DNA of 32,000 bases from Deinococcus radiodurans R1 = ATCC 13939 = DSM 20539. GTDB lineage: Bacteria; Deinococcota; Deinococci; Deinococcales; Deinococcaceae. Both the position numbers and the translations under genes were made by a program. The notes beneath the pieces are model-generated. The model did no database searches and had not been told where the DNA came from. It saw nothing but the letters and a program-made list of their open reading frames with translations. Below, one piece after another: positions 387 through 29,654 of the stretch. The DNA lies in assembly GCF_000008565.1 (NCBI RefSeq), contig NC_001263.1:1911474-1943473 (forward strand). The letters are read 5' to 3'. The first letter of the stretch is position 1. Each line of letters begins with the position of its first letter.

Positions 387-1010
387 ATGACCCGGTCCCC
401 TGCTCCCTCCTCCCCCACCCACCCCCGCCGCCTGGGCCTGACCGGCAGCATCGGCGCGGGCAAAAGCACGGTGGCCCGGTTGCTGCGCGAACGCGGCCTG
501 ACGGTGCTCGACGCCGACGCCGAGGCCCGCTGGGTGACCGAGCAGCCCGAGGTACTGACCGAACTCAACGAGGCTTTTCCCGGCGTGGTCACGGGCGGCA
601 CGCTGGACCGGGCGGGGCTGGCGGCGCGAGTGTTCAGCGACCCGGCGCAGGTCGCCCGCCTCAACGCCATCACCCACCCGCGCGTGCGGGCGAGGATGGA
701 GGCGCTGGAAGCGGCGGCCACCGCGCGCGGCGAGCACTGGGTGGTGCAGGACATTCCCCTGCTGTTCGAGGGCGGTCTGGAACGGGGGATGGACGCCGTG
801 CTGGTGGTAGACGCCCCACTGGAACTGCGGTTGGAACGCGCCCTGGCGCGGGGTGGCCTGACCCGCGAAGACATCCTCGCCCGCGACGCCCGGCAACTGA
901 GCAGCGAGGAAAAACGGCGGCGGGCCACCATCGTCCTCGACAACAGTGGCCCGCTGGAAGCGCTGGAGGGGCAGTTAGACGCCGCCTTGCGCCAGTTGGA
1001 AATCACTTAA
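387..1010 (+). CDS. coaE: dephospho-CoA kinase
   Basis: 207-aa ORF with N-terminal P-loop [13 protein letters not shown] and ITHPRV and DIPLLFE blocks in a CoaE-like layout. TATCCT hexamer at 375-380 lies 6 nt before the ATG (leaderless-type start). Confidence 0.9.
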
Positions 1011-1121
1011 GGACGTTGCCCCTGTCATTGCAAAGTTCCGGTACAACACCGGAACCTCTCCATTCTCAGGGCAACGTCCTTCCTCCGTTTCTCGCTCCGC
1101 TCGGTTCATCTGGAGATGAAC
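1009..1121 (+). repeat. structured intergenic repeat, copy A (13-bp outer stem, 47-nt interior, CT-rich spacer, CTCGCTCCGCTCGG core, terminal hairpin)
   Basis: AAGGACGTTGCCC 1009-1021 pairs with GGGCAACGTCCTT 1069-1081. Inner hairpin GTTCCGGT 1035-1042 / ACCGGAAC 1048-1055. Core at 1091-1104. Hairpin GTTCAT 1104-1109 / ATGAAC 1116-1121. Same layout at 12079-12199 and 23381-23498. Starts inside the coaE TAA stop. Confidence 0.75.
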
Positions 1122-1127
1122 TGCGGC

Positions 1128-2069
1128 TTACTTGACCTGAATCTCCACCGAGTTCAGCACGTCGGCCTGGGCCCCGGCAATCGGCCCAGCGTTGTTGTAG
1201 TTGCGAGTCAGCTTGTTCACCGCGTCCATGCCGCTGTCCACCTGTCCGAAGATGGTGTAGCCGCCGTTGAGAAATTCGGTGGGGCCGAAGGTAATGAAGA
1301 ACTGCGAACCGTTGGTGTCGGGGCCGGCGTTCGCCATCGCCAACACGCCCGCGCGGTTAAAGGTCAGGCTGCTGCGTTCGTTGGCGAACTGGTAACCGGG
1401 GCCGCCGGTGCCCCAACGGTCGCTGAGCGCGGTGTCGGCGCTCTGGGGGTCGCCGCCCTGCGCCATGAAGCCCTCAATGACGCGGTGAAAGCGGGTGCCG
1501 TCGTAGAAGTGGTTGAGCGCCAGGAACACGAAGTTGTTGACGGCGAGCGGCGCGGCCTTGGCGTCCAGGTTGACCGTCACGTCGCCCTTGGAGGTGTGCA
1601 ACACGGCGCGGTAGCTCTTGCTCGTGTCGATGACCTGTTCGGCGGCGGTGAAGCTGGTGCGGCGCTCGGCACTGCGGGGGGCCAGGGTGGTCCAGCCGTC
1701 AGCGGTTGTGGCGGGGGCCGGAGTCGCCGCCGGGGTCTGAGTGACTGTCGCGGCGGTGGTCTGTGTGGCGGGCACTGGAGCGGGCGTGCTGGCCGAAGTT
1801 GCCGGGGCCGGAGTCGCGGCAGCCGGGGCCGCAGGCGTCTCGGTCACGGTCGTCATGGTTGTCTGCTCGGTGGTCGTGGCCGCCGTGGTCGTGCCTGGCG
1901 TGGTCGTCGTGACCGCCGTCGTGGTGCTGGTGGCTGGGGCCGCGCCGTTCACTTCGGCCACGATACCGGGGCCTTTGAGTGGCGGGTTGGGGGTCAGCAT
2001 GGCGGTCTGGGTCGGGGCGCAGGCCACCAGGCCGAGGCCGAGCAGCGGGGTCAGCATCCATTTCTTCAT
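1128..2069 (-). CDS. cyclophilin-type peptidyl-prolyl cis-trans isomerase, lipoprotein with long Thr/Ala/Pro linker
   Basis: ORF 1128..2180 trimmed to the internal ATG at 2069. This gives [17 protein letters not shown] (lipobox LVAC) and places TACGCT (complement of 2076-2081) 6 nt upstream. About 85 aa of T/A/P-rich linker. C-terminal cyclophilin blocks [43 protein letters not shown]. Confidence 0.85.
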
Positions 2070-8211: not shown

Positions 8212-8439
8212 GAGAACTCCTGAAAGCGGCAGGGGCCGCGAAATAAGGGCCAGACGCCTGGAACAGCTCCGGGGCCAGACACCAACGAAAAGCCGGTCGC
8301 ACCACTTGCTCCTCCCGTCCGAGGTGCCCGAATTACAGGGCGGGATTCATCGCGTCTCTTCGACAGAAGTTCCTGGGGTGAATCTGTGCGAAGTGAAGCG
8401 AGTCTAAAGTGGGATCTCTGACAGAACTCTTAAGGCGTC

Positions 8440-10587
<2,148 letters not shown>

Positions 10588-10594
10588 GCCAGGC

Positions 10595-10623
10595 AGGATA
10601 GCGCGGAAGGTGGATTATGTCAT
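10595..10623 (-). promoter_or_regulatory. predicted leaderless recD2 promoter (-35 ATGACA, 17-nt spacer, -10 TATCCT, 7 nt to ATG)
   Basis: Minus-strand reading: ATGACA (10623-10618), taatccaccttccgcgc, TATCCT (10600-10595), gcctggc, ATG (10587). Confidence 0.55.
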
Positions 10624-10631
10624 CAGCGTAA
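10615..10631 (-). promoter_or_regulatory. RDRM-like 17-bp palindrome (candidate DdrO operator) upstream of recD2
   Basis: Minus strand TTACGCTGATGACATAA fits TTAYGY-n5-RCRTAA. Overlaps the predicted -35. Close relative of the gyrA site at 20811-20827. Confidence 0.65.
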
Positions 10632-10791
10632 TTAGGAAGATGGCGGTGCAGGCACGGGCGGCTGTGGCCTCCGGGTTTTCCCTCGTGTCTGCCTGGACCG
10701 AGTTAAGTCACGGGCCAATCGCATCAGAATTCGTGGCATTTTCCTGAGAACCTGACACAAAGACACGGCATACTGAACGCGAGGATAAATT

Positions 10792-11658
10792 GTGATTGCC
10801 GTTACGACCGAATCCACTGCTGACATTTTGCCCCTTCAGTTGGGGTACAGCGGCATCCACCTTTTACCCGTGCCCCTTGGACACCAGGGGCAGGTCTACT
10901 CCGAGCGAGAGTTGCCACCGGACCAACTCGTCAACCTGATCCGCACGACGGGCGAACCGGCCCGCACCCTGGCGATTGACGATGAGGTGGTGGCGCGGAC
11001 GTTCGAGGCGGCTTTGCAGGGCTCAAAGTCGGGACGGCTGGTGCATGTGGCTTCGGGCAGCCGCTTTACCCCGCACTTTGAAGTTGCGGCGCGGGTGGCG
11101 GGGCAGTTCGGGGTGCGGGTGCAGGTGATCGACGGCGGGACGGTGAGTTACGCGCTCGGGGTTCAGGCGCTGCACGCCGCGCACCTCGCCGATCAGGGGG
11201 CGGACTTCGGGCAGATCGCCCGGGCGCTGGCCGAGTTGCGGGAACGAACGCTGCTGACATTCGCGGTGGAGAGCCTCGATTTTCTGCGGGTCAATGGGCG
11301 CATCGGCAATGTCGCCGCCTTTATCGGCAACTGGCTCGGCCTGCGGCCCCTGCTGGCGGTGGAGGCGGGCGAGGTGGTGAGCAAGGCCCGGGTGCGCGGT
11401 CAGGCCGCCGCCGTTCGCACGCTGCTGAGTGCCACCCACCAGTTTCAGCACCAGACCGGCGAGACGCTGCGGCTGTACTGCGGGCACACCATCGGGGGCG
11501 AAGGGGCGGCCGAGCAGTTGCAGGGGCAGCTTCAGGCCGTTTACAGGGACCTGCCCGCCCCACTGCACCCGCTCGGCAGCGGCCTGACCGCCAACGTGGG
11601 CCCCGGCGTGGTGGCGGTCCTCGCCTTTCCGCGCCGCTTCGGGTTGGGGCACGCCTGA
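10792..11658 (+). CDS. DegV-family fatty-acid-binding protein
   Basis: 288-aa ORF with a GTG start preceded by GAGGA (10781-10785). N-terminus IAVTTESTADILP and overall length are typical of DegV proteins. Confidence 0.8.
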   Translation: MIAVTTESTADILPLQLGYSGIHLLPVPLGHQGQVYSERELPPDQLVNLIRTTGEPARTLAIDDEVVARTFEAALQGSKSGRLVHVASGSRFTPHFEVAARVAGQFGVRVQVIDGGTVSYALGVQALHAAHLADQGADFGQIARALAELRERTLLTFAVESLDFLRVNGRIGNVAAFIGNWLGLRPLLAVEAGEVVSKARVRGQAAAVRTLLSATHQFQHQTGETLRLYCGHTIGGEGAAEQLQGQLQAVYRDLPAPLHPLGSGLTANVGPGVVAVLAFPRRFGLGHA

Positions 11659-11928: not shown

Positions 11929-12078
11929 CGCGTTCCCTTTGCCCTGACCAACGGTGGCGGTTCCAGAGCTGGCCGGAGGTGGGGGTCATGCCGCACAGTT
12001 TGGGCCGGGGACTACTTCGCGCAGGAGGGGGCAGCGTGGAGTGGCCCCCGCGCCGCGTCCCGACTTGCGGCGCCTTAT

Positions 12079-12199
12079 ACGGGTTCGAACTCTACTTCGC
12101 GCATCCAGAAAAAGCGCCCGAACGCGCTTCGCTTCTTTCGAACCCGTCTCTTCTTCTCCTCGCTTCGCTCGGAAAAATAGATTTTATGGGAAATCTATT
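12079..12199 (+). repeat. structured intergenic repeat, copy B
   Basis: ACGGGTTCGAA 12079-12089 pairs with TTCGAACCCGT 12137-12147, enclosing 47 nt. 11-nt CT spacer. Core CTCGCTTCGCTCGG at 12159-12172. Hairpin AATAGATTT 12176-12184 / AAATCTATT 12191-12199, which on the minus strand is followed by a T-run and can terminate the GntR-family gene. Confidence 0.7.
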
Positions 12200-12212
12200 C
12201 TTCGAAGGCATA

Positions 12213-12950
12213 TTACTGCCCTGCTTGTGCTTCGCCCTCTTCCCCGAAGGCGAGCGAAATCGCCAGCATGTCGTCAAAGCCGCGCTGGGCTTCTTCGCGG
12301 TCGCCGCGCTCGATGCCGTCCACGATGCGCTCGTGGGTGGCGAGGTTGTCGGCGAGCTGCCCGGTGGCCTGCAGGTGGGCGATGCTGCGCCGCAGCTGCT
12401 CCATCAGCGGGCGCTGAATGGCCCGCATCAGCCGGGTGACCACGCGGTTGCCCGCCACCTCGGAGAGCAGCAGGTGAAGCTGCATGTCGGCCTCGGCGTA
12501 GGCGCCTGCGCTCCCCATCACGGCCCGCATTGCCTCCACCGCGCCGCGCAGATCGCTGACCTGTGCGGGGGTGGCGCGGGCGACCGCCTGAGCGATGGTG
12601 AAGGCTTCCAGCATCCGCCGGGCCTGCATCAGCTCCTCGAATTCCTGCTCGTCGCCCACCGCCCCGAGCCAACCGTCGAAGGTGGGCACGGCGCCGCCCA
12701 CGCTGCGGACCACCGTGCCGCGCCCGGGCCGGGCGTCCACCAGCCCCGCCGCCGAGAGCACGCTGATCGCCTCGCGCACCCCGGCGAGGCTGGTGCCGAA
12801 CTGCTGCGCGAGTTCGCGCTGGCCCGGCAGGCGGTCGCCGGGTTTGAAGGTGCCGTCGTTGATGAGCTGCTGCAACTTCTCGGCAATGTCGGCCCCGATG
12901 GAGCGGCGCTTTTGCAGCGGGCGAATGGCAGGCGGCGTGCGAACAGACAT
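12213..12950 (-). CDS. GntR/FadR-family transcriptional regulator (LldR/PdhR-like)
   Basis: 245-aa ORF. N-terminal GntR wHTH (LPGQRELAQQFGTSLAGVREAISVLSAAGLVDARPGRGTVV) plus a C-terminal all-helical FCD-type domain. Divergent from the lactate permease gene. Confidence 0.9.
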   Translation of the reverse strand: MSVRTPPAIRPLQKRRSIGADIAEKLQQLINDGTFKPGDRLPGQRELAQQFGTSLAGVREAISVLSAAGLVDARPGRGTVVRSVGGAVPTFDGWLGAVGDEQEFEELMQARRMLEAFTIAQAVARATPAQVSDLRGAVEAMRAVMGSAGAYAEADMQLHLLLSEVAGNRVVTRLMRAIQRPLMEQLRRSIAHLQATGQLADNLATHERIVDGIERGDREEAQRGFDDMLAISLAFGEEGEAQAGQ

Positions 12951-18026: not shown

Positions 18027-18590
18027 ATGACCGGTGAATCTTCACCCCACCGGCCCCGGCACATCGTCGTGATGGGCGTGTCGGGGTCGGGCAAAAGTAC
18101 GGTGGCGCGGGCGCTGGCGGAGCGGCTGGGCTGGGCCTTTGCCGAGGCCGACAAGTTTCACCCGCCCGAAAACGTCGCCAAGATGCAGGGCGGCACCCCG
18201 CTGACCGACGAGGACCGCTGGCCGTGGCTGCGGGCGATCCGGGACTGGCTGACGCAGGAAGCGCAGGCCGGGCACAGCACGGTCGTGACCTGCTCGGCGC
18301 TGCGGCGGAGCTACCGCGACGTGCTGCGGGAGGCGGCAGGTGAGGTGCGGTTCGTTCACCTGACAGGCACCCGCGACCTGCTGGCCGAGCGCATGGGCCA
18401 CCGCCAGGGCCACTTCATGCCCGCCAGCCTGCTCGACTCGCAACTGGCGACGCTGGAAGTGCCGGGACCGGACGAACACGCCCTCACCCTCAATATCGGC
18501 GCCGCGCCGGACGAGCTGGTGCGGGAGGTGCTCGCCGGGTTGCAGCTCGGCTCAACCGCTTCCCTCTCAAGCAGGCCGGGACGAGACTGA
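18027..18590 (+). CDS. gntK: gluconokinase (GntK/IdnK family)
   Basis: AGGAGG 18014-18019 lies 7 nt before the ATG. P-loop GVSGSGKST, FHPPENVAKM, VVTCSALRRSYRDVLR, GHFMPASLLDSQLATLE are all typical of thermoresistant gluconokinases. Confidence 0.85.
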   Translation: MTGESSPHRPRHIVVMGVSGSGKSTVARALAERLGWAFAEADKFHPPENVAKMQGGTPLTDEDRWPWLRAIRDWLTQEAQAGHSTVVTCSALRRSYRDVLREAAGEVRFVHLTGTRDLLAERMGHRQGHFMPASLLDSQLATLEVPGPDEHALTLNIGAAPDELVREVLAGLQLGSTASLSSRPGRD

Positions 18591-20925: not shown

Positions 20926-23364
<2,439 letters not shown>

Positions 23365-23380
23365 GACCAATTGCGGTTGA

Positions 23381-23498
23381 ATCGCTCACAGTGAGCGATG
23401 AAACCCGAGCGGAGCGAGCAGCAAAGAAGACGTGCTGCGGGAGATGGACTGAAATCCAGTTCTTTTCTGGATTTGAGGGAATCGGACGCAGTACGTCT
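23381..23498 (-). repeat. structured intergenic repeat, copy C (inverted orientation)
   Basis: Plus-strand coordinates. Terminal hairpin ATCGCTC 23381-23387 / GAGCGAT 23393-23399. Core complement CCGAGCGGAGCGAG at 23405-23418. 9-nt spacer. Outer stem AGACGTGCTGCG 23428-23439 / CGCAGTACGTCT 23487-23498 (one G-T) enclosing 47 nt, with inner hairpin AAATCCAG 23452-23459 / CTGGATTT 23467-23474. Confidence 0.75.
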
Positions 23499-23526
23499 AA
23501 GCCAAGCAGTAAAGACTTTTCCAGAG

Positions 23527-23555
23527 GGCTGGCGCCGACGCGCTGGCCTCTTTTT
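23527..23555 (+). terminator. rho-independent terminator downstream of gyrA
   Basis: GGCTGGCGC-cgac-GCGCTGGCC (9 bp including two G-U pairs) followed by tcTTTTT (23549-23555). Confidence 0.6.
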
Positions 23556-29134: not shown

Positions 29135-29654
29135 GTGGCCCCCCCCCCTGATCGTCCTGCGCGGCAACTCGGGCAGCGGCAAAAGCTCGGTGGCCCGCGC
29201 CCTGCGGGAACGCTTCGGCTACGGGCTGGCGTGGGTGGAGCAGGATTATCTGCGGCGAGTCCTGCTGCGCGAGCATGACGTTGCGGGCGGCAAAAACATC
29301 GGCCTGATTGAAACCAATGTGCGCTATTGCCTCAGCGCCGGGTCCGTTACGGTGCTGGAGGGCATTCTTTTTTCACGGCACTATGGCCCGATGCTGGAGC
29401 GGCTGCACGCGGACTTCGGCGGGCACTGGTTTTATTTCGACCTGCCATTCGAGGAAACGGTTCGCCGCCACGCGACGCGGCCACAGGCGGCGGACTTCGG
29501 CGTGCAGGACATGCAGGCGTGGTTTCAGGCGCGGGACGTTCTACCGTTCGTGCAGGAACAGCTCATCGGGCCGGCAAGCTCGCTGGCGGACACCACGGCC
29601 CAGGTCTGGCAAGCTGCCGGTCTCGACCTGCTCTTTACTCGCGCCCGTCGGTAA
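29082..29654 (+). CDS. P-loop kinase/ATPase (AAA_33- or zeta-toxin-like fold), start codon uncertain
   Basis: Walker A LRGNSGSGKSSVARAL very close to the N-terminus. The only in-frame start is TTG 29082, which overlaps the upstream gene by 53 nt. GTG 29135, with GGGGG 6 nt upstream, would be in frame if the C-run were 9 or 12 nt. Confidence 0.7.
   Translation: MIWATLPSDCRILSGGPKWPPPLIVLRGNSGSGKSSVARALRERFGYGLAWVEQDYLRRVLLREHDVAGGKNIGLIETNVRYCLSAGSVTVLEGILFSRHYGPMLERLHADFGGHWFYFDLPFEETVRRHATRPQAADFGVQDMQAWFQARDVLPFVQEQLIGPASSLADTTAQVWQAAGLDLLFTRARR
29139..29148. repeat. C10 homopolymer at the GNAT/kinase gene junction
   Basis: Ten consecutive C residues directly after TAA 29132-29134 and GTG 29135-29137. 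They encode PPP of the kinase ORF in the current frame. Confidence 0.9.

Follow-up and report, generated by a model that had tools for sequence, protein, structure and literature searches.

A 32,000-nt stretch of chromosome I of Deinococcus radiodurans R1 (contig NC_001263.1, positions 1,911,474 to 1,943,473; hereafter the window, to which coordinates without a locus label refer) carries three copies, A, B and C, of a structured intergenic repeat. In each of the three, the triplet at the 5' end of the element is the TAA stop codon of a co-oriented gene, encoding a peptidyl-prolyl isomerase, a GntR/FCD regulator and GyrA, respectively. The other triplet of copy A also overlaps the stop codon of coaE. 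Overall, the best explanation is that the copies are members of a Deinococcus-specific MITE (miniature inverted-repeat transposable element) family, very probably one of the mosaic small noncoding repeats (SNRs) known from this organism, whose fold is under selection in single-stranded form. The probability of this reading is roughly 0.8.

Architecture and distribution of the repeat family

The first-pass annotation of the window placed the repeats at 1009-1121, 12079-12199 and 23381-23498 (minus), and inspection and alignment of the sequences located them there. It also correctly described outer stems of 13, 11 and 12 bp in A, B and C, each enclosing exactly 47 nt (hand count), inner hairpins in A and C, the motif ATCCAGAAAA common to B and C, and a start of copy A inside the coaE stop codon (TAA, 1008-1010). 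The CT-rich spacer, the 14-nt core and the terminal hairpin of variable sequence are likewise present in all three copies. The spans were too short, however, as beyond this hairpin each unit continues into a left terminal repeat, next to which stands a T-N-A triplet (Table 1). In addition, the strand on which A and B had been read is not the better-folding one. The fold energies of the reverse complement and of the strand first read are -56.3 and -48.9 kcal/mol for A and -49.1 and -35.5 kcal/mol for B. The sense strand is defined here as the one carrying CCGAGCGGAGCGAG, which is the minus strand for copies A and B and the plus strand for C, where the sense and opposite strands have fold energies of -54.7 and -40.1 kcal/mol. 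The window has three exact occurrences of the core, CTCGCTYCGCTCGG, where 100 shuffles give an expectation of 0.00.

Read in the sense direction, a unit begins with a T-N-A triplet, followed by a left terminal repeat of 11-12 nt, the sequence CG(A/G)TTG, a short variable hairpin, the core mini-hairpin, a purine-rich linker of about 14 nt and a long hairpin of 71-73 nt, and it ends with the same T-N-A. In the long hairpin, the left terminal repeat recurs as an internal direct copy that forms the 5' arm, and the right terminal repeat forms the 3' arm. The interior of this hairpin contains purine-rich internal loops and an inner variable hairpin. The long hairpin measures 71 or 73 nt in 34 of the 39 copies of the family recovered below, with an interior of 45-47 nt, a loop of 7 nt and a linker of 14 nt. 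The fixed 47 nt had been read as a sign of selection on structure. The constant geometry instead reflects homology of the copies within a single family rather than independent convergence, so that it does not constitute independent evidence.

Several variants of the unit occur. A short form consists of the long hairpin alone, flanked by TGA/TGA, which indicates that the long stem is the terminal-repeat pair of a minimal element. The long form is this minimal element plus a left-hand module bearing a third copy of the repeat. The 153-bp form contains an additional 20-nt module, and forms of 167-173 bp have an apical loop enlarged by an insert of 14 nt. The units, at 118-168 bp, have no conserved open reading frame. 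A small reading frame starting at a conserved AUGGA was rejected on inspection because frames and stops differ among the copies. There is also a sister repeat family, which shares the core GAGCGGAGCGAG and the inner module GAGAATGGAG...hairpin...GTAATTC. The outer arms of this sister family have another sequence (GAGCAG/CTGCTC), the ends resemble TAGAGCA...TGCTCTA, and an extra module, CTTGCAAAGCTGCGAAGCAGAG, is present. The CTTGCAAAGCTGCGAAGCAGAG module also turns up, optionally inserted, in the main family, in agreement with the description of a mosaic.

A covariance model made from five copies was used to scan 555 kb of Deinococcus DNA and recovered 39 copies scoring 31-108 bits. In about 42 kb of D. 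radiodurans chromosome I, five copies are present. Among 100 loci outside Deinococcus that contain the exact core and served as negative controls, the best score was 27.9 bits. Across all reference genomes, the 14-mer core has at least 120 chance matches in GC-rich bacteria outside Deinococcus, and these lack the architecture. Because the chance loci score below the real copies, the core alone is not diagnostic, whereas the architecture is. A blastn search of the copies against 72,556 plasmid records matched Deinococcus only, in 32 records from about nine species. The hosts comprise D. radiodurans (megaplasmid and chromosome II), D. wulumuqiensis, D. aquaticus, D. grandis, D. actinosclerus and other strains. 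A relative of copy B with 88% identity resides on a D. wulumuqiensis plasmid, and a relative of copy C with 83.5% identity resides on the D. radiodurans megaplasmid MP1. Judged from these searches, the family is specific to Deinococcus. At the three loci of the window, Rfam 15 gave no match at or above the gathering threshold, the best sub-threshold score being 19.3 bits against a threshold of 45.

Outside Deinococcus, several unrelated metagenome-assembled genomes contain the exact 14-mer twice within a few hundred bases (L024 186-368, L102 2251-2312, L020 and L075). In one genome of this kind, represented by a Nealsonbacteria contig with 34% GC, the two copies are 48 nt apart. These pairs are probably other local repeat families that happen to have the same 14-mer.

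Insertion, target duplication and recent spread

The first-pass annotation had also concluded that the repeats are not a MITE. This conclusion is overturned by four properties: terminal inverted repeats, duplication of a TNA target, precise empty sites and a burst of copies in D. wulumuqiensis. The terminal inverted repeats agree at 11 of 12 positions in the D. wulumuqiensis burst subfamily, and at 9 and 8 of 12 positions in copies B and C, both of which are flanked by TAA/TAA. The flanks of copy A, in the sense direction, are TAA, the element at 1127-1010, and (T)TAA. By script, the flanking triplets are identical in 28 of 36 copies (TGA 11, TAA 9, TCA 9, TTA 5), and in burst copies read by hand they agree in 16 of 18. 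A TA duplication of the IS630 type was rejected because the entire triplet is repeated, including its variable middle base. Beyond TNA, the only motif at 16 sites is G or C at -1 and +1, as in the background composition.

The comparison of filled and empty sites bears directly on the insertion. A filled site in D. wulumuqiensis reads CACCTTT-TTA, the 153-bp element, and TTA-CTGGGCGCC. Its empty orthologue on D. radiodurans chromosome II reads CACCTTT-TTA-CCGGGCGCC, with flanks that are 98% identical. This orthologous pair is the cleanest proof of insertion with a 3-bp duplication. At three further sites, D. radiodurans has the element and relatives lack it. One lies after an integrase gene, and another, which reads AGCCGC-TGA-CTTCTC when empty, lies between a permease gene and a GH10 gene. 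The third is the site of copy A, where Deinococcus sp. VB343 has no gap, its coaE and isomerase genes overlapping by 8 nt. A relative with 87% identity has an unrelated 46-nt spacer in place of the element. The CoaE protein is identically encoded in four D. radiodurans strains (CP150840, CP031500, CP094462 and CP050116), each of which has a 117-nt gap after coaE.

The family has also spread within one species. About 25 copies, many of them near-identical, are found in 164 kb of a D. wulumuqiensis R12 plasmid, and on this sequence comparison the copy number has risen explosively and recently in that species. It can be held with high confidence that the element is a MITE with TNA duplication. 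A D. wulumuqiensis R12 plasmid also has a tail-to-tail pair of elements from different subfamilies in a gap between convergent genes (L121 19858-20137). The genes are brxL, of a BREX system, and a TetR gene, and the two elements have a single TCA/TGA triplet in common. The pair looks like the insertion of one element into the target duplication of the other, and a similar nested pair is present at L129 19497-19727.

Three candidates for the transposase partner were rejected on their termini and target duplications. The first is a 410-aa DDE_Tnp_1/DDE_5 transposase of a 1324-bp insertion sequence (IS) with the ends CAATGGTTCGTGCAG and a 4-5 bp duplication. The second comprises IS630 copies with the ends TAGATAACGTG and a TA duplication, and the third is a 374-aa DDE transposase (DDE_Tnp_1) of a 1204-bp IS with the ends ACTCATGAGTTGCATT and a 4-bp duplication. 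The loci examined contain no matching termini paired over a long range.

These insertion sequences, and some syntenic segments, also bear on the history of the two species. The 1324-bp IS is found at L130 17544-18867 on a D. wulumuqiensis plasmid, where it directly adjoins a MITE copy, and at L123 ~9590-10915 on the D. radiodurans megaplasmid MP1. The two are 99.9% identical, which suggests a recent exchange between the species. The 1204-bp IS occurs at L129 40426-41629 and L130 44522-45725; one copy stands beside a MITE end, and the other splits another transposase gene. When a D. wulumuqiensis plasmid is compared with D. radiodurans chromosome II, a xanthine dehydrogenase/DUF1990 segment is 98.4% identical (L129 27350-28010 and L128) and a pdxY/permease segment is 86% identical (L130 41520-42200 and L127). 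This uneven identity hints at patchy recent recombination between the two species.

Fold, strand asymmetry and genomic context

Copies A, B and C fold better than their shuffles, with z scores of -3.4 to -6.6. Pairing was tested over 39 copies in 23 sequence clusters, using an alignment fitted to the model, so that the counts lean towards the model. This was judged a minor concern given the effect size and the independent tests. Paired cells amount to 90.2%, compared to 67% in column shuffles and at most 42% in slid controls, and both-sided changes occur in 26 of 29 pairs. The first-pass annotation had argued for selection on complementarity from stems that differ in sequence and still pair, and this part of its argument stands. 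Stem complementarity exceeds that of the shuffled controls, and compensatory changes are seen in the outer stem, the inner hairpin, the 5' hairpin and the core.

The covariation extends to parts of the element that are not termini. The inner hairpin covaries in 10 of 11 pairs and, being non-terminal, is unexplained by transposase-binding repeats. In the outer stem, sequence is kept only in the first 4-5 bp ((T/G)ACG...). The inner bases vary by subfamily (ACGGGTTCGAA, ACGTGCTGCG, ACGGATTCCG, GGACGTTGCCC and others), with complementarity retained. The right end is matched at 11-12 of 12 positions by the internal arm in copy B, copy C and the MP1 copy, and at only 8-9 of 12 by the true left terminus. 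Between copy C and its MP1 relative, compensatory differences are also seen in the stems and, as C:G to A:T, in the short hairpin, and the short 5' hairpin is found with unrelated sequences in most subfamilies.

The core forms a mini-hairpin, C-G·A-A·G-G-C, with a GGA or GAA loop. Both of its Watson-Crick pairs covary (GC29/CG5/AU3/GU1 and CG33/UA4), and its tandem G·A pairs jointly become G-C/C-G in three copies. The core register proposed by RNAalifold, which pairs CC with GG, was replaced by the register of two GC pairs and G·A pairs, which covaries. By eye, the sequence GGGAA(A/T)TGGAC is directly repeated in the long hairpin and makes up both of its internal loops. Facing one another, these loops would form G·A, G·G and A·G pairs that surround a 3-bp A-U helix.

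The fold is also strongly asymmetric between the strands. Read in sense, the overwhelming majority of mismatches are G·U or G·A. Helix mismatches comprise 41 G·U and 9 A·C events in the model alignment, and 30 G·U and 4 A·C events in a strand-symmetric alignment of the hairpin with its own reverse complement. The sense strand is the more stable in 25 of 25 representatives, by 1-18 kcal/mol. For the long hairpin of copy A, the energies are -44.6 kcal/mol in sense and -37.2 kcal/mol in antisense. Read in antisense, each G·A pair would turn into a C·T clash, and the mismatches are one-sided. A function of the duplex alone cannot yield the asymmetry. Strand-biased mutation could contribute, but it is judged unlikely to produce a 7-fold ratio. 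Thus, it is probable that the fold is under selection in single-stranded form, either as RNA or as single-stranded DNA (ssDNA).

The genomic surroundings of the copies follow a pattern as well. In at least 22 of about 42 copies, one flanking triplet, at either end, is the stop codon of a neighbouring gene (hand tally, annotated loci). In such cases, duplication of the triplet restores the stop codon. These sites may reflect either target choice or the survival of harmless insertions in a genome of 66% GC. The earlier statement that all copies lie in 3' intergenic space is true of the window, but it does not extend to the family, in which some copies lie between divergent or tandem genes. One copy, at L132 3001-3119 on the D. 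aquaticus plasmid pDATS01, is located in an annotated phage tail cluster, between two co-oriented tail genes. Of the older, diverged copies, 14 point the same way as the upstream gene and 5 the opposite way, compared to 11 and 9 among the recent burst copies of D. wulumuqiensis (hand tallies). This is weakly suggestive of selection on orientation after insertion.

With regard to transcription, a consensus scan found no U run directly after any of the hairpins, which are thus not intrinsic terminators by that criterion. A terminator-like site 25 nt downstream of copy C places this copy in the 3' untranslated region (UTR) of gyrA, in sense orientation. The literature on small RNAs of D. radiodurans contains nothing that ties them to these repeats. 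Copy A occupies the whole gap between two convergent genes. The upstream gene on the plus strand belongs to the CoaE family, and the Pro_isomerase gene is called at the same place in L141/L142. A possible terminator of the isomerase gene is a strong terminator-like hairpin, with 16 pairs followed by TTTTT, at 920-954 (minus). It lies in the 3' end of the coaE coding region, downstream of copy A as the isomerase gene is read.

Table 1. Positions of the three copies, their parts and neighbouring signals in the window, and loci of the sister family
Feature	Position	Strand	Remarks
Copy A, whole element, 118 bp	1010-1127	-	covariance model 94.9 bits
Copy A, left flanking T-N-A	1128-1130	-	TAA stop of peptidyl-prolyl isomerase gene (1128-2180, minus)
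Copy A, TTAA at right flank	1007-1010		coaE stop (TAA 1008-1010, plus) overlapping right flanking triplet (TAA 1007-1009, minus)
Copy A, long hairpin	1009-1081	-	13-bp outer stem 1009-1021/1069-1081
Copy A, inner hairpin	1035-1042/1048-1055	-	within long hairpin, purine-rich internal loops
Copy A, core, CCGAGCGGAGCGAG	1091-1104	-	mini-hairpin: two G-C pairs, tandem G·A pairs, GGA loop
Copy A, short 5' hairpin	1105-1120	-	TTCATC/GATGAA
Copy B, whole element, 135 bp	12078-12212	-	covariance model 101.8 bits
Copy B, right terminal repeat	12078-12089		plus-strand coordinates
Copy B, long hairpin	12079-12147		plus-strand coordinates
Copy B, core	12159-12172		plus-strand coordinates; GCGAAGC on minus
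Copy B, short hairpin	~12173-12200		plus-strand coordinates
Copy B, left terminal repeat	12201-12212		plus-strand coordinates
Copy B, left target triplet	12213-12215	-	TAA stop of GntR/FCD regulator gene (12213-12950, minus)
Copy B, right target triplet	12075-12077	-	TAA
Copy C, whole element, 133 bp	23365-23497	+	covariance model 89.9 bits
Copy C, left terminal repeat	23365-23375	+	
Copy C, short hairpin	23381-23399	+	
Copy C, core	23405-23418	+	followed by purine-rich spacer
Copy C, long hairpin	23427-23497	+	
Copy C, left target triplet	23362-23364	+	TAA stop of gyrA (20926-23364)
Copy C, right target triplet	23498-23500	+	TAA
Terminator-like hairpin and T run	23526-23549	+	just downstream of copy C; consensus scan only
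Sister family	L123 23210-23298		
Sister family	L126 13668-13735		
Sister family	L122 37125-37192		
Sister family	L125 3542-3609		
Sister family	L131 1246-1313		
Sister family	L131 22195-22262		
Sister family	L130 32789-32889		
Sister family	L128 8144-8242		

Two other features of the window are separate from the repeat family. A full-length match to the cyclic-di-GMP-II riboswitch aptamer (RF01786) is located at 8282-8366 (minus), with 71.6 bits against a gathering threshold of 53.5, and is the sole Rfam match in the window. A three-copy "direct repeat" at 422-494, 18053-18125 and 29141-29213 is a P-loop (GxxGxGKS/T) coding motif that belongs to three different kinase or ATPase genes, and it is not a DNA repeat.

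Origin, known relatives and significance

The SNRs of D. radiodurans were catalogued by Makarova et al. (1999, Res Microbiol 150:711; cited in PMC1978522, PMC11276467). They number 295 copies of at least nine types, are 60-215 bp long and are described as mosaic (PMC1978522, PMC11276467). They are also regarded as mobile, and an extra copy of SNR4 separates laboratory strains (PMC11276467). The family described here agrees with them in its D. radiodurans host, its intergenic position, its multiple copies and its modular build, with sizes of 71-168 bp. Its modules are the optional 20-nt module, the optional 14-nt loop insert, the hairpin-only short form and the sister family. The first-pass guess that the repeat is an SNR is very probably right, given the organism, the size and the mosaic structure. 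However, mosaic SNRs are present in D. radiodurans and absent from D. geothermalis (PMC1978522), whereas this family occurs in about nine Deinococcus species and is much more expanded, recently, in D. wulumuqiensis. The TNA duplication, the stop-codon targeting and the strand-specific covariation are unmentioned in PMC1978522 and PMC11276467. In summary, the element is known in kind and very probably in identity. To our knowledge, its TNA duplication, its landing sites at stop codons, its core hairpin and its strand-specific G·U and G·A signature have not been described.

Other MITE families offer further comparisons. The Correia elements of Neisseria and the ERIC elements of Enterobacteria are likewise 100-150 bp long with terminal inverted repeats and short target duplications. 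They have no known dedicated transposase and are often co-transcribed with neighbouring genes. The RNA hairpin of Correia elements is cut by RNase III, and ERIC alters mRNA decay depending on its orientation (PMC10969869). In contrast, those elements duplicate TA rather than TNA, share no sequence similarity with the present family and lack its asymmetric build, in which three hairpins lie 5' of a separate terminal-repeat hairpin. The REP/BIME and IS200/IS605-derived elements are also intergenic, imperfectly palindromic and endowed with strand-specific hairpins, and REPs stabilise the 3' ends of upstream mRNA. They differ in having neither target duplication nor terminal inverted repeats and in relying on a Y1 HUH enzyme. 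Elements of the PIF-Harbinger/IS5 superfamily (PHIS) typically make 3-bp duplications, TNA included (PMC4482050). Their MITEs, such as the Tourist-like ones, have in common with the present family a T-N-A or T-W-A duplication, short terminal inverted repeats and non-autonomous bursts. The differences are that the terminal repeats vary here past 4-5 nt and that a strand-specific structure is not described there.

Based on the 3-bp T-N-A duplication, the enzyme that moves the element would be a DDE transposase of the IS5/PIF-Harbinger kind, acting in trans. The element inserts at a T-N-A, very often a stop codon, which the duplication restores. The single-stranded form would most likely be RNA, produced by co-transcription with the upstream gene, and by analogy with REP, ERIC and Correia elements its hairpin may serve as a module that stabilises or processes the 3' end of the mRNA. 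The place of copy C between the gyrA stop codon and a terminator-like site, together with the sense-strand specificity of the fold, lends indirect support to such an RNA activity. Alternatively, the single strand could have an ssDNA role in transposition. That the single-stranded form is an RNA affecting neighbouring genes is a possibility, drawn from these analogies, that must be considered somewhat doubtful.

The rival that survives best is a purely selfish MITE acting as double-stranded DNA, whose structure would be a by-product of its terminal repeats, of a palindrome in the parent IS and of strand-biased mutation, for example C-to-T deamination on the non-template strand of mostly co-oriented copies. 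This is rather improbable. The target duplications, terminal inverted repeats, empty sites and recent burst show mobility, the fresh D. wulumuqiensis insertions have no orientation preference, and the co-orientation of most old copies with the upstream gene is a possible source of mutation bias. However, mobility of this kind does not explain why the non-terminal inner hairpin and the core covary, why the internal arm fits the right end better than the left terminal repeat does, or why stems that differ by subfamily past their first 5 nt are complementary nonetheless. In addition, the 30:4 asymmetry is larger than would be expected of transcription-associated mutation bias, and the tandem G·A purine pairs correspond to pyrimidine-pyrimidine clashes on the opposite strand.

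It is very improbable that the repeats are ends or derivatives of an ssDNA transposon moved by an HUH (Y1) enzyme, whether of IS200/IS605 type or REP/RAYT-like. Their hairpins are strand-specific and tolerate G·T, and HUH enzymes recognise such hairpins. Moreover, the G-N-A loop of the core mini-hairpin and the GCGAAGC of copy B recall DNA mini-hairpins that are classically very stable. However, IS200/IS605 and REP elements make no target duplication and sit 3' of a fixed tetra- or pentanucleotide (TTGAT for ISDra2), whereas here the middle base of the triplet is free among near-identical copies yet equal on both sides, and true terminal inverted repeats are present. The duplicated variable triplet largely refutes an HUH-type mechanism, even though D. 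radiodurans has an active IS200/IS605 element, ISDra2 (PMC11276467).

The first-pass annotation leaned towards cis-regulatory or small RNA genes that are kept at fixed positions and do not move, and intrinsic terminators of the same stationary kind are a variant of this explanation. It has strong covarying folds and the position of the window copies directly behind stop codons in its favour. As the origin of the copies it is refuted by their presence or absence at orthologous sites with an exact 3-bp duplication, by their many unrelated contexts, which occur in either orientation and include gaps between divergent genes and a phage tail operon, by the species-specific burst, by the lack of an Rfam match and, for terminators, by the missing U run and the separate terminator-like site downstream of copy C. 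It is the least probable of all. An RNA role after insertion is possible and forms part of the preferred explanation.

Several points weigh against the preferred explanation, a mobile MITE with a single-strand-selected fold. Copy A has no recognisable left terminal repeat, this part being truncated or decayed, and the triplets are unequal in some old copies (TGA/TCA at L126, TGA/TTA at L127). In about 590 kb of Deinococcus replicons, the search for an autonomous element with the same ends found none, and the IS630, IS701-like and IS4/IS5-like elements that reside there have different terminal repeats and TA or 4-5 bp duplications. The divergence of the terminal repeats among subfamilies past the first 4-5 nt is odd for recognition by a single transposase. 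A consensus scan found no promoter-like site inside the element. A hand tally of about 26 copies in sense and 16 in antisense with respect to the upstream gene shows only a moderate bias, where a purely cis role in the 3' UTR predicts a stronger excess. Because the copies share descent, counts over copies overstate their independence. Finally, the identity with a catalogued SNR, highly probable though it is, was matched by description and not by consensus sequence.

A bolder reading goes beyond a selfish element and seems unlikely on present evidence. The repeat would be a four-helix module, strand-specific and carried by a transposon, whose core and internal loops hold sheared G·A pairs and which is kept by purifying selection for an RNA or ssDNA role. 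As RNA, this module would stand behind stop codons and set the stability or processing of mRNA 3' ends for dozens of Deinococcus genes, possibly through a dedicated binding protein. As ssDNA, it would be the substrate of an undescribed kind of transposition that reads the shape of the hairpin instead of the sequence of the termini and yet makes a 3-bp staggered cut at TNA.

SNRs, of which there are about 300 in D. radiodurans, were once proposed to aid the reassembly of the genome after irradiation, an idea that was dropped once D. geothermalis was found to be without them. For the family in the window, the analysis supplies a concrete mechanism, that of a MITE which duplicates TNA and uses stop codons as safe landing sites. 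It also yields a testable structural hypothesis, namely that the fold is selected on one named strand. If the element does not act as RNA, it would be an ordinary selfish repeat. Its main use would then lie in marking the divergence of strains and species and in cautioning annotators, since the hairpins resemble structured RNAs and terminators. If it does act as RNA, it would be a mobile element that spreads a 3'-UTR module across the genome.

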